In this document: piece after piece, positions 13,101 through 37,430 of the stretch
How the letters are laid out: each line of letters starts with the position of its first letter
How positions within the stretch are numbered: the stretch's first letter is position 1
Origin: Amoebophrya sp. A120
Taxonomy: Eukaryota > Protista > Dinoflagellata
Direction: 5' to 3'
Length of the DNA: 64,000 bases
Assembly: GCA_905178155.1 (NCBI GenBank)
Contig: CAJINV010000003.1
Coordinates: 9,741,979 to 9,805,978 of the forward strand
Made by a program: the position numbers and the translations under genes
Notes under the pieces: generated by a model
Databases searched by the model: none
Told to the model about the DNA's origin: nothing
The model's input: only the letters and a program-made list of their open reading frames with translations

Positions 13101-14097
13101 GACCGAGTGGATTTATACCAATTGAACCCAGCAGGAGTTCGTTTTTATTTAAACGCGCTGCCCCGCTCTAACTGGGCACACGCATAGCTGTTGCAGTGCT
13201 CGAAATAACAATAAGTTTGAAGTTCCCATATTTGTACGCTTTCGAGCTTGAAGTTGCATTTGACGTCCTCAAATTTGCACGCTTTCGCGTCTATTTTACA
13301 TGGCGGCAGAGAAGCGACACTGAGCCCGCACCTGGCAGCGCTGGCAGGAGCATAAACAGCACTTGATCATCTTCTATTTTCATTTACACGATACCGCGAG
13401 AGCGCAGCTCTGATCAAGCCGGTGCAACCCGGTTGCGACTCTGATGCCCGCAATGCGTGAAGTAAACTGGTCACGTCATACAAAAGGGCAGTTTCTCGCT
13501 TAGGGTCCACACGGGGCAGATCGCTGTCGGCTTTTGTTTTTCTATTTCTTTTTGCACCTGCAGCATTACATCACATTTTTCACCTCGATATGTCGGTAAT
13601 CTTCTTGCCAAGTCCCTTGATGTCCGCATTCAACTGCAGGCACAATTCGTGATTGCCTTCGGACTGTTGCAGCGTGTCCGACACTTTTGTTTGGTAATTG
13701 TGCAACTCCTTAGCCAGCTCCTTGGACTTCTTAATCAATCGACGCTCGTTCTCGTGTGCCTTCCGGAGAGCTGCGTGAAGGTTTTCGAACTCTTCCTTAT
13801 ATTGGGTTAAGCAAGCCAATTATGACCAGTAAGCAGGTTCGCAGCATCTATCTTTGCAGATGCAATGGTTGTTATTGCGCGAATGCATAGCTGTAGTGCG
13901 TTCTCAGGCACCGTCAGGCTGCAGCAGACCTGATAGATACACAATCCAGCACTCCACTACATATGTAGATGCGCGACCACGTTGCTGTCTGATATCGTTT
14001 CGCGAACTTCGTTCAAAGTCATCAAAGCGTCCTTGGCCATGGCCTCGAACAGCTTGGCACTGTTGTCGCCATGTTCTTTCCACTCATCCATGGACAT
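1189..14097 (-). CDS. CFAP58: CFAP58/CCDC147-like ciliary coiled-coil protein, multi-exon, 3' part probably continues beyond the window start
   Basis: Approximate exons: 13966-14097 (MSMDEW..LFEAMAKDALMTLNEV), 13584-13810 (QYKEEFENLHAALRKAHENERRLIKKSKEL), 12981-13023, 12554-12564, 11056-11125 (YEKQIADLL), 7642-7682, about 6560-6730 (LQKELQQREVDRAKEE), about 3950-4130, about 2103-2335, 1528-1562, 1189-1315. The peptides follow the CFAP58 N-terminal half colinearly as I recall it (e.g. FRIEYERLHAVMKKSYDNEKRLMAKCREL). Introns 13024-13583 and 1316-1527 are GT-AG and in frame; several other junctions are non-canonical or unresolved. Confidence 0.75.
5702..6332. repeat. About 150-bp diverged direct repeat (5702-5853, 6183-6332) in a CFAP58 intron
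   Basis: AACCCTTTGCTCGCGTCT...TTTAGCGGTGA present in both copies. Confidence 0.9.
11129..12553 (-). mobile_element. Insert with a TAA direct repeat forming a putative CFAP58 intron
   Basis: Inverted repeat CCTCGAGGAAGC / CATCAAGGAGGC (9/12); TAA on both sides; in-frame join INN-TEKV. Confidence 0.45.
12006..12107. repeat. About 34-35-bp tandem repeat, 3 copies
   Basis: AATCCCGGCGGTATTGGCCTTGTGGCA units. Confidence 0.9.
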
Positions 14098-14979
14098 AAT
14101 TCCGATGCTAGGCGTACTTCGTGGCGCGGCGAGACAGCTTCTCAAACGAATTCTGGTAGCTTCAGCTGCACTCAAATGCTTGACGCGTAGTTTTGCATGA
14201 ACCGGCGCTCCCCCATAGCTAAGTAGGAGTATTAGCGCATGGGGTCAGGACGTGCGTCCGCTTCAGCGTCAAAAAAAAAAAGCCAACTGTAGACTGAAGC
14301 ACCGTTACCGTTTACGCTACCGCTAAAAGTGCGCGAGGTCTTCTAATCGGAGCTTCCACGAGCCCCCGGTCGTTCCTCTGTCCGACTCGTTCACAAGCAA
14401 CTGGCTCCAGGAAACAAAGAGGGCGCCAGAACTACGGTGGAGCAGCAGCAATATTGAGCCAGTCCTGCTCTGCTTTGGTGCTTAGCGCTGCATCCTCGGA
14501 GAGAAGGGTCCGCCGACGATGTGGCAGGTTGGAAGGCAACCTTCTGGATGGTAATCGCTGCGGCGCCTGTCATGCTTTTGCTTGAGATTGCCTTTGATTG
14601 ACGGACACATGAAACAAACTGCAAGAGTCGAACAGCACAAGACCTCCGCATATGAATTCTCCGTTTATTTCGGCCTTTTCGCTCTCGACTTCTTTCTCTT
14701 TGACCAAGTGGAGCTTTTTTTATGTTGCGCAGGGAAGTAGTTGCCTGCTTTCTACTAAAGTCATGGATGTGCCAAGCTGAATACCGTTCCTGGTAATTTT
14801 TTCGGTTGCATTCGTCGTGACAAACATTGGCATATGTGGTTGCTCGCCAAAGAAGAGCCCTATACTCCATTATATCCGCGAAAGTTATAGTGGTTCTAGT
14901 TTTCGAGTTTTACAACTTTAGTAAACGAACAACGAACTGAAAACAGAGAAGATGAATAAAGAGAGAACGAACTGAGTGG

Positions 14980-15143
14980 GAAAGTAAGCTTCTCCCTCCG
15001 GGAGGGGTTCGAACTGGCGAGAAAAGTAAGCTTCTCCCTCCGGGAGGGGTTCGAACTGGCGAGAAAAGTAAGCCTCTCCCTCCGGGAGGGGTTCGAACTG
15101 GCGAGAAAAGTAAGCTTCTCCCTCCGGGAGGGGTTCGAACTGG
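14980..15143. repeat. 42-bp tandem repeat, about 4 copies
   Basis: GAAAAGTAAGCTTCTCCCTCCGGGAGGGGTTCGAACTGGCGA, head to tail with no spacers. Confidence 0.95.
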
Positions 15144-16700: not shown

Positions 16701-16832
16701 GCAGTTCGCGCAGCTGCGCAATCCGTCAGGTCGCGCAGCTGCGCAGTTCGCAGTCCGTCAGTTCGCGCAGCTGCGCAGTTCGCAGTCCGTCAGCTCGCGC
16801 AGCTGCGCAGTTCACAATCCGTCAGCTCGCGC
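16701..16832. repeat. About 32-bp tandem repeat
   Basis: CGCGCAGCTGCGCAGTTCGCAGTCCGTCAG-type units. Confidence 0.9.
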
Positions 16833-16936
16833 GTGCTCTGCAGTTTGCAACTTGTCAGTACGTTACGAAAAGACGAAAACTCGAAAACCAGAACCTATTG
16901 AAAGTTATAGTGTCTTACTCATACTCAGTTACTGTG

Positions 16937-17650
16937 ATCATCATCATCATCATCATCATCATTTATCCTGCACTTGGGGGGGACGTTGTAGAGCTTTCCG
17001 CTCTCACACTCAACCCATTGCGCACATTAGCACTAACATCCGTTCTAGTGTCAGCCTGTTGTGCTTGTCAGATCATATCCTCTGTCGCTCGGCAGGTTTT
17101 TACTACTCCCCGAAGCAACTCTGCTCAGGGGCACTCGTTTTCAGACATATTTTCGGCGTCCAGTAACGAGCCCACTGTACTTCCGACGTGGACATCTGCG
17201 GACTGCTTGCCACGCAAATGTCTGCAATCACTCAGGAGATGGACTGGAACTACGAGGCTTCGATCCAAAGCGGGATCTCAGCATCCGGGTAGTCGTAGTC
17301 CTTGTGCGCCGGGGGACGACAATTGTTCCTTTGATCTGTTGATATGGAAGGATATCTTTCTGTTGAGTGCCGCCGATGACTATCCAGAGGAAAAACGTCC
17401 GCAACCCCAAGCTGTCATGCAAATCTGCATGCCCAGATCATCTGTAATGCGGCTCCACATGACGGGCATTTTCTAATCCTGTTTGGTGATCTGCAGTGCG
17501 CGAATCAGGGTGACAGAGTGGATTTGTGGTGCGTCTGGGCTACCTCAGCAGCACGACTACAGTGTGTCCCCAAACTTGTCATGCGCGACAATCACTACTT
17601 GCGGATTTGTCTAGCAGATTCCCCATGTTGACTATGGGGTTGGGGTGGGA
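16937..17650 (-). pseudogene. Possible 3' remnant of a non-LTR retrotransposon with an (ATG)n tail
   Basis: Interrupted frames containing RKCPSCG and VHLLSDCRHLR (CCHC-like), ending directly in about 8 ATG repeats. Confidence 0.35.
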
Positions 17651-19402
17651 GCCTTTTTGCACAGGATAATGACGACACAGAGTTCATGCCTGAGCCGAGT
17701 GCACTACTTTTTGCGCGGCGCCACAAGACGAAGCGAAGCGAGCGGGCGAGGCTGCTCTTCCGGCCTATATACTAGTGAACTTTTGCGACGGGGAGAACAC
17801 CTACCCAAACTGCTAGTGCTCTCCTGCGAAACGATCCTGTCTCACTTTGCCTGTGTACTGCTTGCTTTCCTGTGATGAATGTCAGCGCACTTGACACGTG
17901 CCGAGTTAGTTTGGCGCCCCTCCCTTCCGTTCCACCCCTTTCAGCAATCACCGAGCGGCTGCCGGTGCCCGGTGGTTCTGGCACTTTGCATTACGCGTGT
18001 AGTAGCGGCTCAATTCTCCTGAGCGCTGGCTTTGCTACTCTGAGGGCTCGCGGTTCTGTGCAGGTGAAAGCCAGAAGAATGAGCAACATTGCCCGGCAGC
18101 AATGTCCACGATGGATTCGGGACCAATTAGAAGTGCTCTGGGTTGGTGTCCGGAGAAACGTCGGCGCAAACGCTGCTGGCCAGAAAACGAGCGGGAAGTG
18201 CCTGGGTGGGTAGATTGATACCATACGCAGGAGACGCAGCACCGCGCCACAGTAAATAGCCGCCGAAGGGGCGGCCGGTTTTTCCTCCTCACCCTGCGAA
18301 GGAGGAAGGGGGTTGATGTCTGTGTTGCCAAAAATACAGCGCTATGAGCGCGGGTGGTGAGGTTTATTGGCTCTGTTTCAGCAGAAAATCCCGGCCGCCA
18401 CCATCTAAAAGCGAAAAAGATTAGAGATCCGAGCCCGTGGCGGCAGGTCTTCTCTCCGGCGCAACACAGGGGCCGCGGAGCTCCTCCCGAATATGTGAGA
18501 GCTCAGCGTAGTGCTTGTCCCGGGAGGGCACTGCGACATTGACTGACCTCGTGCGGCACATAAGATTTGCCCCACTTGGTTCCTCTGCGCAAGCCGAAGT
18601 AGAAGCAGTATGCGGCGCCTGTCGTGGAAGAAACGCAACGCGCGCGATCGCGAAGCCTGGTGGCGAGATGTTTACCTGTCTCGCGTGCTGCGCCGCTTGT
18701 CATCCTCGTCGACTCGGCCCTCGGGTAGCCACTTGTCCACGTCTTGGCGGCTTTCTGCAGTTTCCGCATGCCGCTCCGACTGTAGGTTTAAAAGCAAGCC
18801 CGGCCCGCGTTTTTGCTTGGATGGTCCGAAGCCTCCGGCGGGAAACCGTTCTCACCGGAAAGGCACAAGCGTCCACGATGGTGAGCGCACATCGGAGAAT
18901 ATCGACCGACCAGCCACCTCAGCCTAGTCTCACAGGCTCGATAGACTTCTACTGCATGGCCATACATTTTTCAGTGACGAGGGTGCGTGTTTCCAAGTAA
19001 ATGGTCAAGAGCAAGAGCCTGTCAAAGCGTCGTTCCTATTGAAGCAAACAGATGCACTCGAGTCGTGGGGCTTCCCGGGCTGCCATGAAGTCCCCTGGTT
19101 TTTGCTTGATTGCTCTGCCTCTCTCGTCGAGAGCTCCGCACGCACGAAGTTGACGCAGCTAGTTGCAACCATTCGCATCGTTTTCGCAGTGCAAGTTTTC
19201 AGCCCCTCTCTGCAGTTGCTTACTTGTTCTTTTTTAGGTCGCTTGCGGTTGATTGCTGCAAACAACAAGCGAGCAGTGAAACTACTGCAGCGCTGGTCTT
19301 TTACGGGTGTCAGCACAAAGAACGACCCATCGGCGCTTGGTTTTTTGTAGTGTTCCACCTCACAATGACAATGGTTCTAGGAATTCCAACCGCTGGCATA
19401 GC

Positions 19403-19447
19403 TCACCCCAGGTGGACCGTACCATTAGGAAACAGCCCCATCACCTC
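19403..19447 (-). CDS. UBXN11: UBXN11-like terminal exon (EVMGLFPNGTVHLG-stop)
   Basis: Completes the UBX C-terminal TLxxxGLxPN motif; in frame after removing 19448-24517. Confidence 0.8.
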   Translation of the reverse strand, partial: EVMGLFPNGTVHLG

Positions 19448-19450
19448 CAG

Positions 19451-22400
19451 TATAGAAGCGTCAGGTGGGAAATCGTTCACATAACGGAGGCGGTGTGTAA
19501 TACACAAAAGCGCCAAGCGTTTTCGTTTTAGCCATCAGTCTTCTATCTTTGCAGCACACCTTCGAAGCAACGCACCTCAAGGAAGGGCTAAGCGACCTCG
19601 GCGGCCACCAGCTTATTCGCGCTTTACTGTTTCGACACATGGAAGGACCTCGACCACGCTCAATATTCGGCGATCCCTTCCAGAACGACAGCCCGGGCAT
19701 GGGCCGCAAAGATCCTCGCTTGCTGTGAGCGCGGGCCAGTTCCCTTTCTGCAGTTGCGACTTCAGCCCACGACCGGGGTCACGGGGTGAGAGATGGCAGC
19801 GGCCCCCTCCGATGCGGCTCGCTATAGGTAAGAGGCAGCCAGGGCGCCGCCATACCTAGGCGCACACCCCGACGCGTACCCGGTCACAGCGCTGGGCTGA
19901 CACCAGACCCGCGGCAAGCCCAAACACTACAGCGGCACTAATGACGACGCCGGCGCTGTGCCCGTTGGCGGTCTGCTGCGCGCCCCCCCTACCTGCGCCC
20001 AACCTGAACAAGACCGGGCGGGGACCCGGCGAGAAGTCACGGCTCCTGTAGGTTCGCGGGCGGTTCCTGCAGGTGCCAGAGGCCAAGCGGGGCGCGCGCG
20101 CTTTCAACGTGCGGCCGCCATCGCCAAGCGCTAGCTTTATTGCGGGCCTGGGCTTGACTCAGATTCCCCCGCCTTTTGGCAACAGGTCCCGGGCCTCATA
20201 CGTTCCTTGTTTTCTAGGCCGGTCGAAAGGGATCGCGCGGCCCCCGCCGGCGCCCCAAAGTTCAAAAAGTTTCCCCCTCCAATCCGAGAGAGAGGCGCGC
20301 CCCGATTGTGCAGCCCATCCGGCTTCTTCACAAGAGCGGAGCGGACCGCGGCACTTCCGGGAAGAATGCCAACAGGGGTGGGCGTTTTGCGTAGCGCATG
20401 ACGGTGGCCAGGAACGCTCTCGCGCGTATCGTGATGGTGGCCGCGCCTATTCGTAGGCCGGCCGCGATTGCAAGGAAGCTCTTGCACACGGGCGCGGCGG
20501 TAGAGCAGAAGTAACAGTCAGAGTTCAAACACAAATACTGGAAAAATTCAAGAAAAAAGCTCCAAGCTAATACATAAGAAACGACCCAGGCGGCGCGCGC
20601 CGCGTGGGAAAAAATAGCGCGCAAACCTTTCGGAGCACCTCTTAGATTGGACGCGGAGATCTACGCCAAGCACAAGCTCGATGCTTGGCCTTCAAGAATC
20701 TCCACACTCCACTAAAGCGGCTGCCTTTAGCCCCTCTCGGCGGAGCTACATGCGGAAAAAGCCGGCAAAAAACCTCCTTCAAGAGCCAGAGCCGGATGGG
20801 AAAAGCTAGAAAGGCTGAGACGCCTCCCGCCTTACAAAACCGCAAGGCTGAGACGCCTCCCGCCTTACAAAGCCGCAACCTCCCGCCTTGGCAACTTTTC
20901 GGAGCGCCAGATCCAGAAAAAGCCGAAGCGCCCTCTGCGCTTTTGCTTGCAAAAGTGCTCAGCTTTCTTGTGTTTTGAGAACAAGAGAAAACTGGTAGAA
21001 AGCGGGCCCCCCGAGAAGTTTTCGGATCTGCAGGAAGACAATCTCGCTGCTTACAAAAATCCCCTCCACCTTCAGCCTCTTTTCGAAGGCCGGCCAGACC
21101 CGGAAAAGAAAAGCCAGCGGCCGGCCTCAAAGAAAGTGAACACCTTCTGGCTTTTCAGACGAGCCAGATCTGGTGGGCAGAGCTAGATCCGGCCAGAGTC
21201 CAAAAGTTCGCTTTTTCGTTGCAAAGGCCGCTACTTTTGGCTTGTCCTAAATTTGCCAGAAGCAGCCAAAACGTGGCCGCTTTTGGTCGTGCTGATACGT
21301 CGTGGCCTGGCGCAACCTTCAGAAAACCTTCAGAAGGCTTTTTGACCTTGATGATGATGATTAGTGCGAGCGGGGCTCGGCGCAGCTCCCTCCTCCGGCG
21401 CGCGGCAGGAATAGCCTGCCCTAATACCCTAGTGGTCACGGCGTTGACCGAGGCCAGGACTTTTCGTTATTCGGTTGTGGAACGCCCTCACTTTCGATCG
21501 TTGGGCCTTGCTTCATTCGGGGGCCGGCATGTTTCACACATTCCGAAGAACGGGGCGGAACTACCAGCACACGCACAGGATACGGCGCTTGTTTGTCCTA
21601 TTCTTTGGCCTGGAGGTCAAGGATCGACCTCGCGATCACACTTACGGCTCACAGTACTAAACGCTCTGACCTCCGACCCGTACTGATTGCGCAGCAATCA
21701 CGCTTGAGTGGACTCGAACCCCTCGGCTCGTTGAATGAAGTTCCACCAGTCAGGAGCTACACCCTGGCGAGCTGACCAAGGCAAAGCTCATCCCAACCTT
21801 TTGAATCCGGCGCAGTGGATCCTTTCCCTACTAGGTTTTTTATAGTGAGACCAGGGCACGCCCCCTGGAGACGGCGCGACTCACTTTTTGCAAACCTTCT
21901 CGCACTAGCGCCCATCTAGATGCGGCGGGCCTTGCTCCATTGATGGCGTGCAAAAAATTCGGATCGAACGAAGGCGCAGGCGCTCTCTAGGTAGGTAGTC
22001 CGAAGGTAGGCAGTCTTAAGGTCGTGCCTTTCTCTCAGTTCTTTTTTGTGTTTTCTTTTTCTGTGTCTTCAGAGCTGCTGTCTTTCAACAGCGAGCCCTT
22101 TCTTGGTCGGTTAGCTGGTTGCTAGCCGTTTGAAGACGTGCCTACTGCTGTTGCTAGGCGCAGGCTGTTGCGTGTGGCCGCTGGCGCATGGGAAGGCGGG
22201 CGGACCTGAGAGGTCAAGGCAAGCAAGCAAAGTCTTCAGACACGTTGGCCGGCCCCAAGACGTTTGCCGCACATCGCGGCGCCGCCATAAATCGACAGGC
22301 TGCTTTTTTTTTCCGCTCTAGAGACCGGCTCTTTCGCTCGTTTTACGAACAGCCTACCTAGAGCAAAGCACTCTGGTCGGCCACTGGACCTGCGCCGGCT

Positions 22401-24515
22401 GGCTAGTGGCCGACTGCCTTTCACGGCTGTCGGCGGGCTTTTTCCTTGTCCGGCAAGCTTCTGGGTCTCTGCTGAAGTCCTTCTTTTTCTTTTCGTTCTT
22501 ACTGTCGCAGGTCGCCGTCGAACTGTCCATGTTTGCTATGGTTGGAGTCCGCAACCCGGCGAGAGACTTGGCGGCTGCCCCTGCCACGCCTTGGGCTCTT
22601 CCTGCCTCACCTCCTGTCGCCTGCCTCGCTCTGTTTTACGCCGCGCGCCTCGGCCTCTTTGCCAGGTTGCTGTCGTCCTCGCCCCGGCCTCGCAGCTGCG
22701 CTGCGTTGCCCCCCTTGGAAGTCGCGCCGCTGCTGTGCTCTGCTGCCTTTTCTCCCTTTTTCTCTTTTCCCGGTTCCGGGGGGGGGACGCCTTTTCCTGC
22801 CTTTCCCGTCAATGCGTTTGCCACTACTGCAGCAAGGGCCCCCTCGTCTACGGCGTCGCGCCCCTCATCGGTCCCGCGAAAGCCTTGCCCCTGTTGCTGT
22901 TGGCTTTCTTGGCTCGCGGGCCTGTCTTGCGTTGCCCGCGCACCTGCTTCACCAGTAGCCCCCTGCTGCTCAGCTTCGTCCAGGCCTAGTTTTTCTAGCA
23001 GCCATCTCGACCGTTCTCCGCGTGTCATTTCCGGCCATTCCTTCACCGGTGGGAAGTCATAGAGATTAACTATCCCCGAAGTCGTACACTGGCCAAGCAC
23101 CACGCGAGTCGTGATTTTCTGCGCTGCCGTACCGCAACCCTGTTTCTAACGCCGGGGCGTCGCTTGCTACCTTCCGCCAAGACTCCGCGCTGTCACCGTA
23201 GAGGCAATTCTTTTGCACTACGTGCCCAAGCACCTCCATGGTCTCGATCGCTTCTGTCAGGCTTAGCACCACGCCCGCACCCCTACGCAGCGGACCCCGC
23301 GGCTTTTGGTGCAGTTTCTTATAGTCCTCCAACCTGTCTGAAGCATATCGCTTGGCCTGAGTGCCATGCCATCACGGCCTCCACCGCAGCGCGTGCACTG
23401 CTGCAATATGCCAGGACCTGCTGCTCTTGTTCTCTATCTTTCTTCTACTTCCAAGTGCGCCGCCTTGATCTTTGGTTGCAGCACTGCAACCATTTTTGTG
23501 CCGTTGGGTGGAAATCGCCCATACATAGATCCGAGCGGCCCCAACCTCGTCCGTAGAAAGTACTGAGGTCGTCAGCTCGTCCTTGCTTTTGCGCCCGGGC
23601 TAAAGCGCTCCGAGCGGTCCGGGATGATTCCCGCTAGCCGAAGATCACAGGAGTCGGGTAGTCGGGTCATTGCGCCTTCTGCTAATGCTGTCACTAGCGC
23701 CGCGTCCGCCGTTTGGCGCGTTCGCCGTGCCTCATGGTTCCGCCTCGTTCAACCCCGCGAGGCCAGTGCCCAAGATTCGCAGCGGGAAAGCTGCCCACTT
23801 CAGCACGCCTCCCATGTCAGTCAGCAGATTCCTTTGCGACAGAGCGCGGAGTATTTTGATGCCCAGAAGGTTCAAAAATAACGCGAGCCCTTTTGCATGT
23901 TTTTTTGTGAAAAGTACGCACAGTTTTCTTTTATTCCGCCTTCAGAAGGTTTTGGGACTTTGAACCTCAGAAGGGCAAAAGAAAAAATCTTCAGGAAGGT
24001 CAAAAACGAGGCGCATAAAAACCTTCCGAAGCTTTGCAGTCAGTCAGTCGCTCACGTCTAAGAGTAGGGCCAACGCGAGCAGGTTCTGCGTCTTTGGCCA
24101 CAGTTCGGCTCTTTGCAGGCTGTTCACGAAGAGGGGACGCCAAACTCATAAAGAAAACTGTGGCTACGGTAAAGCTCTAGAACACACAAAAGAAGACTGT
24201 GGCTAAAGTTTTGCACATCGATCAAAGAGCTTCTGAAGGTTATTGAACACCTACTGAAGGTCCAAACTCGACAAAATTTTCTAAAGGTTTGAAAAAAAAA
24301 AAAAATTTCCGAAACAGGACCTGTATCCGTTTCAGTTTTGTGTCTTTTTCAAAGTGCCCACTTCTGCACCTTCAGAAGGTTTTTCGATCCTTCTGAAGGT
24401 TCTTCTGAAGAATTTTCTTCTGAAGGTTGTAGTGATTTTTTCCCGTATAGTCCTTCTATTGAATTATGCATATAGTTCCTACTTCGTCGTCGATTTTCCT
24501 CCAAACACTCCCTTA
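19451..24515 (-). mobile_element. 5-kb introner-like element forming non-canonical UBXN11 intron 4
   Basis: 25-bp imperfect inverted repeat (TAAGGGAGTGTTTGGAGGAAAATCG vs TATAGAAGCGTCAGGTGGGAAATCG, 17/25 identical); flanking 5-mers TTAGA and CTGGA; removal restores the UBX C-terminus. Confidence 0.8.
23066..23590 (-). pseudogene. Decayed tyrosine recombinase-like ORF inside intron 4
   Basis: GRADDL (box I-like R, about 23580) and, in another frame, GPLRRGAGVVLSLTEAIETMEVLGHVVQKNCLY (box II-like xxLRRGA...LGH...Y). Contains stops and frameshifts, and the His of HxxR is missing. Confidence 0.5.
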
Positions 24516-24517
24516 TC

Positions 24518-25030
24518 TAAAGTGGCTTTGGTGTCGGCAAACAAACGTGTCGGTGGAGGGAAGGCACACTTCAGTACCGAGGAAGGGTCCTCGTGCGACA
24601 AGTGAAGCTTCGCTTTCGCCGCCTGGTAGAGCTCAGCCACGGTCGCTTGCTTCGGCAGAGACACGCGACAAGCTCCGTTACGGTGCTTCACTAAAATACT
24701 GCAAAACGAGGCTCCAAGTTCCGCCTCGCCGCCGGATGGGCCGGCTTGCGTCATGCAGTCGTCTCGCCTCGCCCTCGCACTGCAAGTGTGCTCCACGGCT
24801 TTCAACGGACTGGCTCTGACGGGAAGCGTAGCTCCAGTAGTTTTGCAACCAGGAGTTTGCTCCTCGACCATTGTCCGCGTCACCAATCTCCGGGCCGTCT
24901 GCGCACTGTTACTCCGCAGCTCGGCGGGATTTGCGGCTGGCAGACGTACGGCGTCGCGCTCATTCTTAGAAAGGAGCCGCTCTTCCATCTCTTGCCGGAT
25001 CGGAACAATCTGCCCGTTCGCCAGAATAAC
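24518..25030 (-). CDS. UBXN11: UBXN11-like exon 4 (most of the UBX domain)
   Basis: Canonical acceptor ctctctcag|GTT; VILANGQIVPIR...QATVAELYQ...LKCAFPPPTRLFADTKATL (UBX FP motif); 171 codons. Confidence 0.85.
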
Positions 25031-26876
25031 CTGAGAGAGAACGAGATGTGCTGATGTTGATTATTGCCCCTCTGCCTCTGGATCAATCTGACGACCGAAC
25101 ACGAACGCAATAAAGTGTGCTCTTGCTTTCCGTCTTTGTAATTGCTCAACTCGCTTTTGCAGCACTTGCCGGGAGAGAAAAAATGAAAATCGCGCACGCG
25201 CGTGCGCATATAGACGCACGCCAACTACACCAGACGATAAATATCAAGAGTCAGAAGCTCCTCGTCAGTCAGGCAACGGAGGGCCAAGACTGCAAAGCCG
25301 AAAAGAACAAGGCAAGTGGCCCAAATGGCTGAGGGCGGCCGAAAGCCAGGCCCCGGGGGGACGGCGGCGGCTGCCTCTCACAAATACCAAGCGGGGGCAC
25401 TGGGTGCGACCAAACTCCCCGAGGCGCAGAACCCCGGCAGCTGTTTGTTTTCAAAAAACAAGCGGCCGGCCGCGGCAGCTCCCTGCAGCCCAGCGGGCCC
25501 CGAGCGCGGCGCCCGCCCGAGGGCGCCGGCCGCGGCTGCTGCAACGCGCGGAGACCCGGGCGCCCTCCCACCGCGTTCCCGACTGCGCGTCGCCCTTTGA
25601 CTTTTTTTTTGTTTTCCGAATCGGCACGCTGAACCTCCTCCGCGCCCTTTTTGGCAAACTTGTCCCACTAGTAAGGCCACCGGCTTTTTTCTACAGACGC
25701 GCTCGCTTTCGAACCCAAAAAATTATGGGCCCGCGCTCCAAAAAGAAACTCAAGCCATTTGATTTTTGGCCCAGATTTTTACTTTTTGTCATGAGGCAAC
25801 TGTGCTCCGTTTTCTCTTTTTTGTCGTTGGGGCTGAAGAACTTTACGCGCCCGCTAAAAGTTTCGAACTGGGTCTAAATTTGCATATGCGATCGGGCTTC
25901 GCGGATCTGGGAGTGGGACTGCGACTGTCTGTGCCTGGGTTCGTAATGGGACATCTCAAGGGCGAGCAGTTAGGAGGTCTTATCTCGGGGAGCTTCTAGA
26001 TCTCGAGTCTATTGCCTACAATTTGCGATAGTTTTGCCCAGCTAACACGCATAGCAACTCCAATACTTTTCGAAAAAGATCGCGCCAAAAACGCATGGAA
26101 GAGTGCGCCATCCTCTCCCATGATTACTCTCTACGCCCTTGGTCCCCCTCCATTCCTCTTCTTCCCCCCTTGGCAACTCGTTTCTTTGCCCTTTCCTTGC
26201 GTGACATAAGTTGGCGCCTTGTAAAATCAAAATAGGAACCCTAAATCCTAAAAACCCTCTAAACCCTTCCGACGCTGGTGGCGGAGCCGGGACGGAAACA
26301 GGATGGAGTAGGAGCGGAAGGGAAGAAGGATCGGAGGAAAAGCGCAGGAACCGCCACTGATCAGAGAGAGCGCGCATAAACGCATGGCGTGTACCTGAGC
26401 AGAGTTGCGCGAAATAAGTTGGCGCTTTGTAAAAAAGACAGAAAACCTGTGCGGCCAACAATCAAAATGCGACAAGACAGCAACGAGACCGAAGCAATCG
26501 ACGAATAAACACCGGAGGCGAGTCAGCATAGTGCAGCGCTCCTATATCCTAAAAGTAGCTCCACCAGCGCAGCGAAAAAGAAGGCGCATATTGATAAACC
26601 ACGCACAGACTTTGCCTCCCCCCGCGCGTTAGAGGCGGCGCGCGTTTAGAATAATGCGCTGGCGCTTGAGCGAAGCAACACAAACGCGAAAGACAGCAGC
26701 TTACATACTTAGAGCAAGCTCCTTCGGCACTGCATTAGCTGCCAAGGCGGGCCAGAGACTGCAGTCAAAGAAAAACGAAAACGCAAAAACTAAACTTAAA
26801 GTGTAAAGCAACAAGCAGACAGAGCCAATAAAGTCTATAGATGGGCAGCGTACTGGAGCAGTCGAGTTCGTCTTAC

Positions 26877-27031: not shown

Positions 27032-29362
27032 TATCGGGTGGAAAAGGAAGAGCCACCCCCGCCGCATATAGGGGTCCCGGGCGAATGTGGGCGCAACCTC
27101 TAAAGAAATGGCTCGCCTCACGGAGGTGCTCCTGCTCACTCGCACTAACGCAGGGCCGCGATAGCTACGCCCTGGCGGTCGGGCAGCGTGTCGAAGCTGC
27201 TCGCCCCTTGATCCAGTGCGGTGCGCCCGCGCTTCGCTATGCTCCCTATGCATCGCCGATTCCCGGGCCTCCACAAGAAGACTCGTCGAGCCTACCTGGC
27301 CACGGTACAGAGGCAAAGCCAAACGAAGCGCACAGAGATAAGACACGCGGGCGCGCTGCAAATTGGCAGCAATGGATGCCGCAAACGAAAAGGATGGCGG
27401 GCGGCCCCGAGCGTGGATGAACCGGGGCCGCCCAAATCTTTCGCGGGCGCCCTCACCTCGAAAGCGGCAAGCCACCGGGGCCACTGAGGCGGGCGCCCGC
27501 GCCGGGTGGCCATGGCATGAAAAACAACACGCGGGCCCCTTCGCCAATCAACGGCGAAGCGCGCGGGGCTTCTAGTTTTCCGCCCTGCGCCCGCGGCAGC
27601 TGTTGCTAAGTAAGAAAGGACGGAGGCAGGCGGCACGCTACGGAAGTGCTGCCGCGGGCGCCCGCGGCACTGGCCAGCGCTGAACACTGCTGGGCCCGCG
27701 GCGGCGCGTCTACCTCTAGCCGGCACCCCTCGGCCTACCTTCCTCCGGCTTCCGGCGGTCCGGTTTTTTGCTTTCAGGCTTCCGGCCTGGTGGCTTTCGG
27801 TTTTCCAGATTTCGCCGCGCCCCCGGCTTCCGGGCTTCGGTGCCCCGGCTTCCGGCTTTCTGGCTTTTTGCTTTCCGGACCGCTGCACGCTGGCTTTCGA
27901 CCGGCGCCCCGGTTTTCGGCCCGGTGTTCAGGTTGTCGCCCCTCATGCCTTCGGCCGGCCTTCAGATTTTCGGCGCCCAGCGCTTTTCGGCCCCCCAGGC
28001 TTCTTCTTGCGGCCTCCAGGTCTCCGGCGTTCAGGTTTTTACGCGCCGCGTTCAGGTTTCGGGCTTCCGGCATTCGCGCAGGCCTTCGGCCCCCGGCAAA
28101 GGTTTTCGGCTTTGGGGCCTCGCTCCAACCTTCATTCTCCGGCCTCCGCCTCGGCTCCAAGGTTTCGGGGTCTAGGCTTAGGCCCGCCGGCTTCCAAATC
28201 TACGGCGGCCGCTTTTACGTCGGCGCCCAGGATTCCTGCTTTGAGTTTCCCGGCAGCCACCTTCGCGCGCATGGGGCAAAATGGCACGGCCCGGGCAAGA
28301 AACTTGCTCCCCCACTGCTAATATTCAGGCGGGCCCCAGGTTGTGCGCCCGGAATCACAACCACAACACCGCCCAAGGGGGCCGCGCTGCGCCCTGGTGC
28401 TTTCCTTTTGTTGTCGCGGCGCCCTGGGCATCTGAGTGACACAGAGACGTGCTATACCAGTGGCGGGGCCTGGGTGGGGCCGCTCCCAGGAGATATTTTT
28501 CTGGCTACCCAAATGCCCATCGGCGTGAACGGTGGGGACGCGGGGGGCCAGCGCTGCCTTGAGTGACACAGGAGAGGGGGCGCGGAAAAGAGGGGGCGCG
28601 GGCACCCTCGGGGCCCGGCGGCGCGGCGCTTGCCCGTACTTGTGCGGGCGCGCGGGGCTACCCTTCTTTCATGCCATGGCACGCGCGGGCTGGCTGCTGC
28701 CAATCGCTTGAAGCGCAGTCGGGAACAAGAGGAGGAGGCGCGCGCGGGCAACCGCGCCGTCCCGGGCCCGGGCTGGCTTTGCCCCGGTGGCCTGCTGCTT
28801 GCACGGGGGCCGAGAACGGCAAAGACGGCTCCTGCCAGCCTGTGCGCCCCCAGGCTTTCGCGCACAACGCAAAAACCCGGCAGCTGGCTTCGATTTCTGG
28901 CGAACTCCTCTCCTTTTCTTGCTACCCAAGGCCAAGAAGCCCAGCGCGTCGCCTGCTCCCTCCCCACTTTGGAGTCGGCCGGCTTTTGTGGTGCGCCCTC
29001 CATTCGAATGTGGGCCAAGATGATAGATGCCCGCTCCGCGCGAGCTAGCTGCTTCCTTCCTGCTGGCCCCGTTTTGGCGCCCGTTTTTGGGCGCTCCAAA
29101 TTAGCCGCGCGCTAAAACCCAATGAAAGAAATGGAGACAGGTTGCTTTGCTGGCAACAGTTCAGCACCCACGCCGCCTAGACATGACAGGTTTTACCTCT
29201 CAGGGATGACAGCACCACGGACCGCTTAAACATTGCCGGCCGTTTTGTGCCCGGGTGCCAAAGAAGCCGCCGGGCCTGTTTGTCGCATCGGATCACGCGG
29301 CACAAGCCCCGCTTTGAGTTCCGCAATATCGGTCGGGGGTGCCTTGCGTTATCTCTCTGATA
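27032..29362 (-). mobile_element. Introner-like insert forming non-canonical UBXN11 intron 2
   Basis: TATC...GATA termini with a perfect 5-bp direct repeat TGGAC (29363-29367, 27027-27031); removal gives VLD|GYFP. Confidence 0.85.
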
Positions 29363-29364
29363 GT

Positions 29365-29401
29365 CCAGCACGTCACGCAAGACCCGCTGCGCCGTCGAGT
29401 T
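29365..29401 (-). CDS. UBXN11: UBXN11-like exon 2 (37-nt micro-exon, NSTAQRVLRDVL)
   Basis: Supplies the missing SEP segment between PFYKYE and DGYFP; in frame on both sides. Confidence 0.8.
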
Positions 29402-29404
29402 CTT

Positions 29405-31569
29405 TATCACACAGAACACAAACGCCCTACCTTGCTTTTTGATCGCGGCCCCATCTCATGGCCGACTGTCGCGCATCGTGTTGCACGTTTGAAGTTGCGC
29501 ACTACTGTTGCGCGCTGGGAGTTAACGGCCCGGGGCGCTCACCCGGCTCATACACTACGACCAGCGCGCGCGTTTTTGCGCGCGCTTTTGTTGGGGAACA
29601 CCACACCGCCAAAGGTTCAAAATGCTGCAGCTTTGCACAGCTAGCAAAATCCCAAACACAAACACAAACGGCAGGGCTTGAGCTCCCTCGCTCTGCCGAA
29701 CCTGGAAGGGGCAAAGGAAAGGGACCAAGCTCATCGGCTCCACTCTCTTCAGCATCATCATGGCCATAGGTCTAGCGCTAAGGCTCTGGATCTGAGTCAT
29801 TTGGATCAGAGTACTGGGCTGCGACGCTAAGGCATTGAAGTCGCTGAAGGGCCTGCAGGTCGTATCTCGTCGCCATTTTTAGCTAATGCAGACGCTGGCG
29901 CCCGTTATAGAATTGGCGCACAACCTGCCGCCCTGCGCCGAGCACTCGGCCGGCATGGATGCGTGGCAGGCCCACTGCCCCCTACTTTTTGACATTTCTG
30001 GCCGCGGGGGATTTGGGTGAGCTTGCGCGCGCGACCGAGTAGAAATACCGTGGCGGCGGCGGCGCGCGCAATGACAAGAAAACCGCTACCCTGCTCCGCC
30101 CCGCTCGTTCGGGCTGCGGGGCCAGCAGGAGAAACAGGCCGCGCCGCGATTTTTGGAGGGGCGGGCGCCGCCATGGTACTGCGGCGGCTGATTGCGCACG
30201 CCCCGGGGCTTGTCGGGTGCGTCAACTGGAAGAACGGAAATTGGATCCAGGTCGTGTTTTATCTCGGCAAACACCCCCCATGCCGTCGCCGCCAACCCCC
30301 ACCGAAGCCAAGCACTTCAGCCGCGGCCTCAAGCTGAAGCCGGTGCAAATGGGCAAGCCGAGGGAAAATGTACAGCCAATGTTGGCGAAGGTGGCGCCAG
30401 TCAGGGGCAACGCCAAGAAGAAGGGCGGCACGAAGGGAGCGGGCAATAGCGGGAAAAACGGAAACGAAGGCAAACGAAATGGCGCGACGCCTCTACTGAT
30501 GTCAATCTGCCAGCGCACGAATCTCACCCACACTCCATCCAGCCGCGCGACAAAGGCAACCAGCAAGCCAGACAGCCCTGCGCGTTTCTCCGTGGGAGCA
30601 CATGTTTGAAGAGTCTGCATACTGGGCCGGGGGACTGAAAGAAGCGCACGGGGTGAACGAGCCGCATAGCGGAGTAATGCAGCACACTCACGCGCTGCCT
30701 GGCACCACTCTAGCCAGGCGCGCAGGCTGCTTGACGCCTGCAGCCAAGAGCCGCGACAGGGCTTCTGCGTGGCTTACGTGCAACAAACGCACGGCAGACA
30801 GGCGGCACGCAGCAGCCTGCCGCATGCCGCACGCAGCCACCGCCGGAAGGCTACTTCTGATTGCACATATGCAACAGGCGTGCAAATCAAATCAAATCAA
30901 ACCCGCCGTCCGGTAGGAATGTGAACCACTTGCCCCCTCCTCTGAATCACTCCCCTATCCCTTTGAACCACCGCCCGATCTGGGTCACTACTTAGCATCT
31001 CACGCATCACCTCCCCACCTCCCCCAGTCGGAAATTGAGCGAGCTGGTACCGAAAGGGCCGGCGCGCTGAGTACCCGGCCTGGCCCGCCGGGTGGCTCCG
31101 GCTGGTTCTCCGGCACCGAAATCCTACCTGGCCTGGCATGCACCAAAACAAATCCTACCTGGCGACACGGTCCGGCTCGCCGCCTCTGGAACTCAGGCCG
31201 GAAGGGCACGCGCTGGGGCATATGAAGAAACTTCGGCAAGCCAGACGGACCTTCCAAACACGCCGCCCGGCTGAAGTTATCGGGCGTAGCGGTGCGGCCG
31301 GGCCTGGCAGTTCCGGCGGATCACGGCGCGGCAGGCTTGCCCCGTCGGGCGAGACCTCATTTCCTTGTCGTTTTCATTTTCTGGAGAGCCTGCCTCGTCG
31401 CTTTATTCCTCAGCATTTTGCTTCTTACTTTGTAGTTTGTGATCTAGCGGAATAGTTGAACTTTTCTACACATCTTCACAGGCCTGGCGTACGCGGATAG
31501 TAGTTATGCTTTGCAAGCAATGATGTGGAATATTGTAAAGCTGGTATGGATGTGCCATTCTGTGTGATA
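29405..31569 (-). mobile_element. Introner-like insert forming non-canonical UBXN11 intron 1 (intron about 29402-31571)
   Basis: Perfect 12-bp terminal inverted repeat TATCACACAGAA at 29405-29416 and 31558-31569; flanking 5-mers GAGCG and AAGAA. Nearby GT-AG or GC-AG choices give the wrong frame. Confidence 0.85.
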
Positions 31570-31571
31570 CG

Positions 31572-33674
31572 CTCATACTTGTAAAAAGGGTGACCCTCTA
31601 GCCGCAGCCCGTCTTGAAAAAAAATGAGCTGCGCCAGCCTTTCGGACTCGAACTGGTGTAGCCTGGTGCCGCCCTGCGGTCCTACCTGAACAATTTTGGC
31701 CTCCCTCTCCACGAGACCGCTCAACTCCGTGACTTTGCGCTGGATCAGCCCGATATCTACGGTCGGCGCCACTGTCCGTGCGTCTGTTTCGTCTTGTCTA
31801 CGAGAGGGACTAGAGCTAACCGCCGGCGCTTCTCTTCCTCGCTCAGGTGGCCGACCCGGCATGGCGTTGACCGAAGGAGAGACCTTTAGCGCCTTGCCCT
31901 CTGCTTCTTGCGATCTTTCAGTTTCAGGGACCGTTGCTATTGTCGGGGACGTGTTCGAGGCCTCCTGTAGTCGAGATCTCTGCTCCGCGGGAAGCGGTGG
32001 CGCGGCCATGACCTTGGCTCTTATGCTCTTACCGACGCGATGGTGAGCCTCCTCTTCCAACACGCATCTATCGACGCCGTCCTCTGGAGAGCCTCCAACC
32101 CAGGTGAGGCCGTAGTCGGCCAAGAACCGTTTGATATCCTGGAGCTCTTTGCGCAACTCGGCATTTTCGGACACGACCTCGTAGAGCGAGACGAAGTTGT
32201 CTATTTGTGCAAGCGGTTCGTTCGCTTTTTGCAGCTGCATCCGCACTGCCCGCCTTTCGTGAGCGCTATGAGACGGGTCGGCTTGAGTTGTTTGTAGTCG
32301 CTGAGCAATCGAGGTCGCGCCGAGCGAAGATCCCCTTGGCGCAGCCTCCGGACGAACTGAGCTGGAACTATGAACACTGGGGGCGAGGCGTTCAAGAAGC
32401 AGCTTGTCGCTACTTGTACTTTTTGGGCTAGGCACAGGAGCAAAATGAACCGATGCGGGTCCGCCGGCGAAGGCTACAGCGGCGGTGCGATCCAATACTT
32501 TAGGACTTGCGTATACTGCATTTGGATGGGACGACGACGACACCCGCGGTAGTGCGGTGCAATGACGCGGCTCCGCGAATGAACCTCCTTGGTGCTGAGC
32601 GCGAGTAGCGTACGCCATCGGGATGCGCTGCCAGAGTTCCTCCTTCTCCAGTGCGGGGCTTCGCTCCGATCCGAGCCGACTGCAGAGGTCCCCTGATGAT
32701 GCTCTCGGAGGCAGATTTCCCTCGCCTGGGTCCGGCCCCCTCTCGCTGGTCCTTGTTGACGCACGCACCGACGAGGCCTGTCGCAGCGCGAATCTTGGCG
32801 ACGTTTTCCACGAAGAGAGTACTGTAGGACTGCTGACGCCGACAGCCGCAGTGGAGGTCCCAGCGCCGGCGGTGCTTCTGCTTTTCTTGTAATCTGTTCG
32901 AATAAAAATTTCAAAGCCTGACGCGCTATCGGTGGTTAAGCTTTCCTCGTCCTCGCGATGAATGTGAAGATTTGGGGCTCCCTGTCCCTCGTCTAAAGCA
33001 CCTGCTATGGAGAGTTCTGGTAGTTGTTTCGTGGCGAAGCTCTTTTCAGCGCTATGGAGGCCAGCAGCCGCGTCCGTCGCAGTCCGAAGTGGCAATCGAG
33101 AGTGCAGAAGACTGACGCGACCCGCGATGTTCACTTGATTCTTCACGGCAAGATTCGTGCTAAAAGGTATGGCTCTCTCGAGCAGCGGTCGGGTAACCTG
33201 TTCGCGGCCCCCGAGCACACAGCTATCCACAACGCTTGCGAGCGCCCGCAGCTGCGAGCTCGTATTGGAGCAGCCATCTGCGAGGCGCGGCTTCGGGACG
33301 TCCTCGGGAGATGGGACACATCCAGATGAAGAAGGAAAGGACGCAGTATCGTGGAGTAGTGGCACCCGAGCGCCTCTTGGCGCTGGTGACAAGGAACTCA
33401 TCGCGGACAAAGTGGCTTTCTCTCGAGTTGAGCCGTGCGGCGAAAGCGCGCGATCACGGGACAGAATACAGTGAGACGGTTGGTCGATGTGGTCGCGAGC
33501 CTGTTCGTTGCTATTTTTACTCAGTTTCTCCCGCCAGTGAGGACCCGCAGGTACATTTCGCTGTCCATTGACATTATCCCGCACGACACCAAGACAGACG
33601 CCTTGCAACAAACGCCCTTCATGTGAATTCGGGAAATAGTTGCTGCTCTCACCCGGACCGGCGACCGAGGACAT
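31572..33674 (-). CDS. UBXN11: UBXN11-like protein, exon 1 (701 codons; low-complexity N-terminus, coiled coil, start of SEP domain)
   Basis: Long ORF containing ELRKELQDIKRFLADYGLTWVG and LIFFQDGLRLEGHPFYKYE, which resemble the UBXN11 coiled-coil and SEP start. The ORF tail beyond 31572 is intron readthrough. Confidence 0.85.
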
Positions 33675-34946
33675 CTTATCTTCTCAAAAATTCGAACTCA
33701 CTCCTTTCCCCTCCGCACTGGCGCAACTTGTGAGAATCTGAGCCCACAGATAAGCCCCCTGTTGTCCAGCACGACAATTTGTTCAGTCAGTAGAGCTATA
33801 TACACTGCGCGGCCTTCTGTCAAGACACGCGAGAAAACTTGCGAGGTCTCTCGTGTAGCAGCGCGAATCCGTTTGAGGGCCCGACATTTCTCATATCAGC
33901 TGCCACGCTGTAGCCGATATGTCCCGAAGGACCGGATTCCGAATTTGTCAGGGGCTGATCCGTCGCCGGAATCTATGGGGGCGATCATCTCCTAGGCGGC
34001 GCCCTCATCCCAGTGTTAAAGCGAGGGCATGCGCATGGCAAACAATTTGGATAAACCTGTGACCGAGCTGGGGGGCATGCAAAATGTGCCCATAGCTGGG
34101 GGGCAACCAAAAATGGCCGAGCTGAGAAATGACCGCTCATAGCTGGGGGCAAGCAAAGAGTGACCGCCCATAGCTGGGGGGCAAGCATAATTTGTGACCG
34201 GGCTGGGGGGCATGCGAAAAACTATAGAGCTATAATGCGCCAGCCTTTGTCTATCACGAGGGGAAGACTGCTCGAACTCCCACGACGGAACGCGTGACCA
34301 GTGTGCGGGGCCGACTTTTCGCGCTGAGAAACCTCACGCGCACAGTTTGTGTGAGGCCCTAGTGACAAGGGCCAACCGGGAAGACCCGGAGATCAAACAA
34401 GAGCACAGCGGGACGCCCAGCAGCTAACAAACGCTATTGAACGCGCGGGGTTCAATCAATAGTAATATTGGACGCGCGGGGAAGCCCGGCAGCTGCCTCA
34501 GTCAATCAATAGACATAGAGCATATTGACGCGCGGCCGCGGGATTCGCTAAGATATTGCATGCGCGGGATTCGCTAAGTTGCGGCTTGTGTGACAAGGAG
34601 GCAGCCCGAGACAAGCCAAGGCCTGAAGGCTAAGCGCCCGGAGATGTGGACGAGGGAACACAGCTCGGATTCTTTATAAAGTGAGCGCCTCCACCCTGCC
34701 TGGCGCCCTCGCTCTTCCACGGTCCCGGAAAGAGAGACGACCTAAAGCTCAAGGCTGCTCGCATTCCAACCTCAAAATTTCGCCACCCGCCCGATCCCAC
34801 CCGCCCCACTCTGCACTCTCCCTGGTGCTTCATTGGTTTGCCAAGCTTTCTGCGAGCCAACGCCCCATGCCTGCGGGGTGGGGGGCTGTCATGCTAAAAT
34901 ATCAAAGCGCCGATCTTGCGCCAGCCTGCCTTGCGAGCGGCTAGAT

Positions 34947-36639: not shown

Positions 36640-37430
36640 TACGTCAGAGCCTCAATCTATCCCTTGCTAAGAGTAAGAGTGTGACGGCCAAACCATGACT
36701 CCGCAATTTAAAGCCAAAAAGTAAAAACAAAAAACAAAAGCTCAGAAGGAAAAGCTAAAAGCTAAAAAGTAAAAGCTAAAAAATGAAAATTGCAAGAAAG
36801 AGAAAAGCAAAGCGTGCAGCAGAACGCCAGCGGCAGAATTTGAAAAACTTAAACTTTTGAATTGCTCAAGCAACAGCAAAAGCAGGCAAGGCGGTGCAAG
36901 CTGGATAAAGAAAGCGTGTACGGCGCTGGCAGAAAATGCGACGCCTCAGGTTCAAAATCTTCAACAGCTGGCGCCCCAACCCGAGGCTCGACCAGCTGCT
37001 CGCCATCGGTTCGCTATATAGCGAACTGATGGCGGGCGCCCCACCCCGAGGTCCGACCCGGTCCCCGGGCACCTCAGCCCGAGGCTCGACCAGCTGCCCG
37101 CCATCAGCTTGTGCTATACCGAACTGATGGCGGGCACTCCACCCCGAGGTCCGACCAGGTCCCCGCCATCAGTTCGCTATATACCGAACTGATGGCGGGC
37201 ACTCCAACCCGAAGTCCGACCTGGCAGAAAGAACGAGATCAACTGAAACAGAGCAAGAGTTTTCGAAGTCCTGTTCTGGTTTTTTTTTTTGTTTTTCGAT
37301 CTAGCGGAATAACTTAATTTTTTTTCACACTTCTACAGGCGAAGCACACATTGCTAGTTTTTTTGCATTGTTAGAGTCGTGTCTATCATCACCATGCCCC
37401 TCCCTCGCTCTTTTGCCAGTCTGTCATGTA
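36640..37430 (-). mobile_element. Member of the same family as UBXN11 intron 1; probable glycosyltransferase intron 2
   Basis: Starts TACATGACAGACTGGCA (compare TATCACACAGAATGGCA); shares the CTAGCGGAATA...ACAGGC block with 31444-31483 and 52419-52460, and the TCTATCCCTTGCTAAGA block with 50923. Confidence 0.6.

Follow-up and report, generated by a model that had tools for sequence, protein, structure and literature searches.

A spliced 5-kb non-canonical intron in a UBX-like gene of Amoebophrya sp. A120: probably an introner that received later insertions and a broken gene

The introners of Amoebophrya are bounded by inverted repeats (IRs) of 8–20 nt and direct repeats of 3–5 nt, and they start with TAT (Farhat et al. 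2021, PMC7789003). In Amoebophrya sp. A120, the introner family 38 is Ginger-like (integrase/DDE), with a 5-bp target-site duplication (TSD) and TA/TA termini; families 86 and 93 display Crypton end or classifier matches and were finally classed as terminal inverted repeat (TIR) elements. Other introners are classed as Cryptons, in Tetraparma gracilis and Pelagomonas calceolata, or as DIRS, in Polarella glacialis and Lasiodiplodia (Gozashti et al. 2025, PMC12130899). We analysed a 5-kb insert (19446..24515) that splits a UBX-like gene in a stretch of 64,000 nucleotides of A120, hereafter the window (contig CAJINV010000003.1 of assembly GCA_905178155.1, positions 9,741,979 to 9,805,978, forward strand). 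An earlier note, made from the letters alone, had read this insert as a decayed autonomous element of the tyrosine recombinase (YR) type, parent of the IR-bounded introns nearby, and as a candidate for an undescribed system. As a general idea the latter is already described, Crypton- and DIRS-classed introners being listed by Gozashti et al. In our opinion the insert is probably an old, spliced introner of the Amoebophrya type, due to a DDE/integrase-like insertion, whose 5-bp duplication has drifted and which then received nested insertions, one of them carrying a broken gene.

The host gene lies on the minus strand, with the exon 24516..25028, covered by the transcript contigs, upstream of the insert and the final coding codons and stop (19402..19445) downstream. 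Contigs from X3, X4 and X5—three runs of one sample, which the tool guesses to be probable RNA—connect 19445 directly to 24516, the listed pieces holding no letter between the two, and thereby skip 5070 nt; they also skip the canonical GT-AG intron 25029-26874. The junction 24518/19447 to which the earlier note pointed corresponds to this joint shifted by two bases at higher positions, the cut position being ambiguous by 2 nt. The three equivalent cuts give the ends TA-GA, AT-GG or GA-TG, none of which is canonical. Excision of 19446-24515 restores the reading frame of the host through to the stop, which bears out the claim that the insert interrupts a UBX gene; the UBX-like match itself is weak, since the upstream exon alone, which holds most of the UBX/ubiquitin-like domain, matches OTU1_UBXL (PF21403) of Pfam below the cut-off (E 4.7e-4, 21.1 bits for a cut-off of 22.7). 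In the DNA run X1, depth is found in 30/30 bins across the insert, the joint 19445>24516 is absent, and contigs span both insert junctions without differences; X1 is possibly the source of the assembly, and so is not independent of it. Of the raw RNA runs, X8 yielded a single read and X9 none, too few to test splicing, and the metagenome and viral loci searched with the host exon gave no match, hence neither an empty site nor an ancestral codon. The intron is real, spliced and non-canonical: that it be an assembly artefact, or unspliced, has a negligible probability given that the X1 contigs cross both junctions unchanged and that the exons are contiguous and in frame in three sets of contigs.

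The ends TA…TA (19451/24515) and the imperfect 25-bp IR announced by the earlier note are indeed present. The 5' arm (24491..24515, minus strand, TA start) and the 3' arm (19451..19475, minus strand, TA end) match at 17/25 positions, a value reached by 2 of 200,000 random pairs from the window. When the window is scanned without constraint, a 17/25 IR is unremarkable, so that its weight comes from its position, i.e. a junction defined by contigs. On the transcribed strand, counting G·U, 21/25 positions pair in a duplex of -23.0 kcal/mol, equalled by 6/2000 random partners; this G·U advantage is not general, since in two of four introns it is the sense strand that has the higher stability. No second copy of the IR sequence was found in the window. 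Beyond the ends stand two 5-mers, non-identical as claimed: TTAGA upstream (24516..24520, minus strand), retained in the transcript contigs, and CTGGA downstream (19446..19450, minus strand), which are identical at 3/5 positions at a 5-nt offset. Both encode Leu-Glu, as 6 of the 1024 possible 5-mers would, and the alternative join yields the same protein. Such a pair is what a duplication would leave after synonymous drift of its exonic copy, and CTGGA is likely the drifted TSD copy.

With the insert, these contigs support five non-canonical introns in the region. Among the other four, contig joints define 13821-13994 (flanks identical at 2/5 positions), 17381-17668 and 27032-29362 (flanks 5/5 for both, both joints flagged 'between: not known'); 29405-31569 (flanks 2/5) is read from a 30-letter loose end of one contig, which matches 31571 onward. 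In all five, the length skipped exceeds the TA…TA element by 5 nt, and a single cut rule (four bases of the upstream 5-mer plus one of the downstream 5-mer) applies. The 5-mers differ from site to site, and at two introns they are perfect, site-specific duplications. Mismatched flanks are not peculiar to the insert: they are found in three of these five introns. TAT-N7-AAA starts occur at both ends of 17381-17668 and at the left end of 27032.

Several observations can be added on these neighbours. The region 29401-31570 is an intron of the same host gene with a perfect 12-bp terminal IR starting with TAT, and it links the open reading frame (ORF) 31479-33683 to the UBX-like exons; the host gene, this ORF included, may have a SEP-UBX, UBXN11-like architecture. 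At 13817-13995, a non-canonical intron of 179 nt with TAT…ATA ends lies in a coiled-coil gene, presumably CFAP58-like. The introner at 17376-17668, with its perfect 5-bp duplication, is joined in the same transcript contig but well beyond the stop of the host gene, and seems to lie in an extended 3' untranslated region or in the next gene. A candidate introner at 60043-60393 has TAT ends, a 15/25 IR and a perfect 5-bp duplication, and keeps the frame open. A blind search for more introns, combining IR and open frame, was dropped; it gave many false pairs.

What follows on the mobilising enzyme, the succession of events and a cut guided by the hairpin is inferred. A TIR element would have been inserted by a cut-and-paste enzyme of the DDE/integrase-like type, whose 5-bp stagger would produce a 5-bp target duplication, and the duplication would have drifted afterwards. 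In the transcript, the paired ends may bring the exons together and the host would remove the element plus 5 nt, the cut being measured from the hairpin rather than set by GT/AG: it would fall one base ahead of the TA at one end and four bases past the far TA at the other. The mRNA would thus receive a single base of the downstream 5-mer, leaving the other four free to decay. Insertions inside the intron would be tolerated because only the ends matter; they may have accumulated later, one of them bringing the now-broken gene, which would be a passenger and would not have mobilised the intron ends.

The broken ORF with its two motifs lies where the earlier note saw it: on the minus strand and in different frames, GRADDL at 23582-23565 and LRRGAG…LGH…Y at 23290-23198. 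The second motif belongs to an ORF of 101 amino acids (23069..23371, minus strand), and the first (23565..23582) stands 292 nt upstream of its box-II Arg. For host-like codon bias this ORF ranks 2 of the 298 stop-free frames of at least 95 amino acids in the window, five of which are training frames, and comes top of the 293 others; the best bin is equalled by 14/1000 shuffles. The low-complexity frame downstream (22639..23145, minus strand), a likely part of the same remnant, ranks 12/298 and belongs to no family found. Over the whole zone the bias is not above that of composition-matched shuffles (86/500), and the box-II ORF alone stands out. In the ESM Atlas, the latter has a recognition of 2426, with no YR among its matches, which are unnamed or oxygenase fragments sharing about 100 of 256 features; the downstream ORF has no match there reaching 0.9. 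A single-sequence fold model of the 101-residue ORF has a mean pLDDT of 45.5, too poor for a fold search. The presence of a coding remnant in the insert is supported by these data.

Tyrosine recombinases share the catalytic set R…HxxR…H/W…Y. In the remnant, candidate R, R, H and Y come in this order, GRADDL being box-I-like and LRRGAG…LGH…Y box-II-like, with the His of HxxR missing. The gap between the Arg of the two boxes is 97 codons; it is 92-100 in 26 of the 37 bacterial YRs which, among 61 fetched, matched both box patterns. By contrast, the spacing from Arg to LGH is 18 versus 20 in 37/37 of these, and from His to Tyr 7 versus 8-9. Shuffles yield a loose box II in 16/2000 cases and both boxes jointly in 0/2000, with patterns that had been loosened post hoc to fit the target.

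The profile and homolog searches gave no support to a YR. Pfam, run on six frames of the insert and on its ORFs, detected no YR (PF00589), no reverse transcriptase (RT) or RNase H, no endonuclease and no integrase/DDE; the PHROGs and NCBIfam profiles gave no YR match, and the PDB sequences none or chance matches. No homolog was found at E <= 1, either for the 101-residue ORF against longer proteins or for the whole frame, nor at E <= 10 when reading through one stop and one frameshift. Among 1.84 billion representative proteins, phmmer returned 3 matches, all internally repetitive and devoid of a YR domain; phage tblastn returned 2 chance matches, the metagenome and viral loci none to the ORF, and a Cre scan of viral contigs near-identical Cre only. 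We also built a frameshift-aware profile from 61 YR domains, all prokaryotic: it scores the remnant at 18.1 bits, a value reached by 30/150 shuffles; the background, taken from 126 segments of the window, lies at 16.9 ± 2.8. With HHalign the ORF ranks 4/151 with a probability of 1.3%. Seven held-out Cre-like genes given four frameshifts served as controls and scored 46-94 bits undamaged, 28-51 at 10% and 15-32 at 20% substitution, so that the tests lose their power at about 20% nucleotide decay, where the controls are mostly lost. Given these control scores, an ordinary YR with light decay is unlikely; one that is specific to eukaryotes, or has decayed heavily, is possible. The motifs, taken by the earlier note as the mark of a tyrosine recombinase, thus find no profile or homolog in any search, within this limit of decay; the lack of a YR profile match is the outcome that the earlier note had itself set against its reading. 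That the broken gene is a decayed YR seems to us possible, if slightly on the doubtful side; otherwise it would be another mobile-element gene or a captured gene.

The interior of the intron bears on whether the ORF belongs to the intron ends. We deduced the copy status from the X1 depth at 80% identity (baseline 44), the right terminus being below resolution. The left 1.1 kb (19451-20566) and the ORF zone (22196-23824) are at baseline, i.e. single-copy at this identity; 20567-22100 and about 23825-24515, including the bin at the right end, are multi-copy. Since single-copy and multi-copy pieces alternate with boundaries inside the intron, the intron is a mosaic. At 21349..22100 (minus strand) we find a nested multi-copy repeat with an (ATC)n tail at about 21350: its successive depths are 1198, 287, 302, 211 and 69, with up to about 3190 at 21398, hence a drop from about 70x baseline to baseline toward the ORF, which is also toward the 5' side of the repeat. 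Its 5' ends are variable, and contigs have loose ends at 21349-21352 in X3, X4 and X5, and at 21397 and 21467 in X5. From this depth pattern the segment is likely the 3' end of a non-LTR (long terminal repeat) retroposon with 5'-truncated copies. The segment 20567..21348 (no strand assigned; X1 depth 82-472) is diverged, multi-copy, and ends in CTTCAGAAG repeats, as read from the motif list. The segment 23940..24515 (no strand assigned), multi-copy, is rich in the palindrome CTTCWGAAG, with 6 of the 9 exact copies of the window. No long internal repeat was found within the intron, Rfam gave no match, and no recent relative of the ORF was seen in the contigs, which prove presence, not absence. 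We observe besides that 7/9 exact window copies of CTTCWGAAG fall inside the intron (21328 and 23940-24425), resembling subterminal binding-site repeats, and that the segment 24366-24515 folds with a z of -2.7.

This mosaic, together with the order and spacing of the motifs, is also what one would expect if the remnant were a true YR, of the DIRS/Ngaro/VIPER-like or Crypton-like type, nested in a pre-existing introner and unrelated to its ends, which would be a sub-case of the introner reading. A His-to-Tyr gap of 7, as here, would be that of DIRS-type enzymes. DIRS-like matches are recorded for dinoflagellate introners (PMC12130899). Nevertheless no profile matches, no remnant of RT/RNase H was found nearby—decay could hide it—and no terminal repeats of Crypton type were identified, so that we hold a nested YR for rather unlikely. 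The remnant might instead be the ORF, now truncated, that belongs to the repeat with the (ATC)n tail, which would then extend from about 23940 to 21350 (minus strand), or a captured fragment of a host gene, the YR motifs being fortuitous. The ORF is on the same strand as the tail, the depth falls from the tail toward it, a direct repeat of 19/23 brackets 21351-23939, the codon usage is host-like, and the YR searches were all negative. On the other hand, no RT or endonuclease family is matched, the bracketing repeat is one of several palindromic copies, and the continuity from tail to ORF is only presumed. We consider this origin tentatively, as a possibility that falls short of even chances.

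We must return to the reading of the earlier note, in which the whole TA…TA unit of 5065 bp is a decayed autonomous YR element, from which the short TAT…ATA introns derive as non-autonomous forms. In Tn916-type YR transposons, which are bacterial and have a circular intermediate, a coupling sequence is brought along from the donor site, so that the short flanks, though at a constant offset, may differ; a coupling of this style, through a 5-bp heteroduplex, would explain why local flank pairs mismatch at three of five introns while the +5 geometry is kept. The Arg gap, the motif pair and the coding aspect of the box-II frame agree with this reading, and for the A120 family 5, of 1995 copies, a peptide BLAST match to 'LTR/DIRS' is on record, although the family was finally classed as TIR (PMC12130899). 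Against it stand the lack of profile or homolog support (the score in the background and the weak HHalign value reported above), the missing His of HxxR, the Arg-to-LGH spacing and the single-copy status of the ORF at 80% identity. Moreover, the flank pair of the 5-kb intron is synonymous, which an unrelated coupling sequence would achieve in 6/1024 cases, two neighbours have perfect site-specific duplications, and Cryptons are described without TIRs (PMC3212892). We thus find this reading improbable: the IR-bounded spliced intron with a decayed coding remnant is well there, but neither the YR identity nor the parentage of the IR introns finds support.

The introner reading has its own difficulties. 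Apart from the mismatch of the flanks at three introns, 29405-31569 combines a perfect 12-bp IR with flanks of only 2/5; and, over the five cases, a decaying duplication and a mixture that includes unrelated 5-mers fit about equally well (likelihood 1.6e-4 versus 2.1e-4), a two-age model with more parameters reaching 1.2e-3. With Pfam, no DDE/integrase remnant appears in the intron or in 279 of the 298 window frames of at least 95 amino acids, and for this reason the identity of the mobiliser is taken from the literature and not from the window. The YR-like motif pair, absent from 2000 shuffles, stands inside the IRs and is co-directional with the host gene; no duplication uniquely bounds a nested element (the 19/23 match at 23940 is rivalled by one of 18/23 at 24370); and a single-copy ORF between multi-copy flanks is also the picture of a master copy with deleted derivatives. 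All these points weigh against the introner reading, and because of the mismatched flanks a slim chance is left to a wider mechanism: the TA…TA introners of this genome would be moved by a Tn916-like eukaryotic YR, with a 5-base stagger and no need for homology, the 5-kb intron being the decayed master copy. Some copies would then carry the duplicated 5-mer and others the 5-mer of the donor site, and a structure-guided splicing of element plus 5 nt would render both harmless.

Elsewhere in the window, other types of repeats were noticed. An element at 47216-48945 is bounded by a 59-nt IR, 85% identical, with TGT…CCA ends, i.e. a different TIR type. Two dispersed repeat pairs (36721-37359 / 51833-52478 and 44544-45130 / 56064-56476) are 67-86% identical, with no Pfam transposable-element domain in the ORFs scanned, and tandem arrays occupy 14968-15143, 16702-16849 and 59459-59746, with units of 42, 32 and 16 nt.

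What this locus adds to published data is a small regularity: in five neighbouring introns the stretch removed is 5 nt longer than the element, and a single rule, counted from the hairpin, places the cut in all of them, whether their flanks match or not. As U1 small nuclear RNA was not detected in Amoebophrya (PMC7789003), this rule bears on how non-canonical introns are spliced in such a context. Were the recombinase model true, the mobiliser so far missing for such introns, which number tens of thousands, would be identified, and the coupling-sequence type of DNA transposon would be added to eukaryotes; the model can be tested on the flank statistics of young copies in the public genome.

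Compared with known systems, the insert has no relative found among Tn916-type elements, and differs from them by its synonymous flanks and by the two perfect duplications of its neighbours. Our literature search, which left most subscription journals outside, found no coupling-sequence model of intron gain; the words 'integrase' and 'DIRS' are absent from the main text of PMC7789003, as are 'DIRS' and 'recombinase' from the text of its supplement. With Cryptons (Kojima and Jurka 2011, PMC3212892) the insert could share the single YR ORF expected of them and the terminal direct repeats of 4-6 bp, the substrate of their recombination; unlike the insert, with its TIRs and site-varying 5-mers, these elements are without TIRs and their repeats are often constant in a family (TATGG in CryptonS). 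Introners derived from YR elements provide a general precedent for introns ascribed to such elements, but for those classed as Cryptons the published table gives GT-AG ends and no TSDs (PMC12130899), whereas the insert has a 5-bp offset, non-canonical ends and no YR match. The hallmarks of DIRS/Ngaro are an RT/RNase H ORF and ITR or split direct repeats; in the insert, where decay could hide them, neither an RT/RNase H match nor long internal repeats are detected.

The A120 family 38 is closer by its TA/TA termini, 5-bp offset, TIRs and non-canonical splice sites. It differs, in a comparison made by description only, by its size of about 810 bp, its near-identical copies and the homology of its ORF to LTR elements (PMC12130899); an integrase-like DDE ORF of this type is not found in the insert by Pfam, as expected of non-autonomous copies. 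Finally, the non-canonical introns of A25 and A120 described by Farhat et al. (2021, PMC7789003) differ from the insert by their length—a mean of 240 nt in A120, versus 5 kb—and by the insert being a mosaic with one TAA end, no TAT-N7-AAA and a direct repeat of only 3/5. They resemble it by their non-GT-AG ends, terminal IRs, co-oriented genes and possibly direct repeats across the borders, and resemble its neighbours by their TAT starts; the window as a whole matches what that text gives for A120, with TAT-N7-AAA starts, co-oriented long ORFs and non-canonical borders. The insert is thus likely an unusually long example of an intron class already published for parasitic dinoflagellates.

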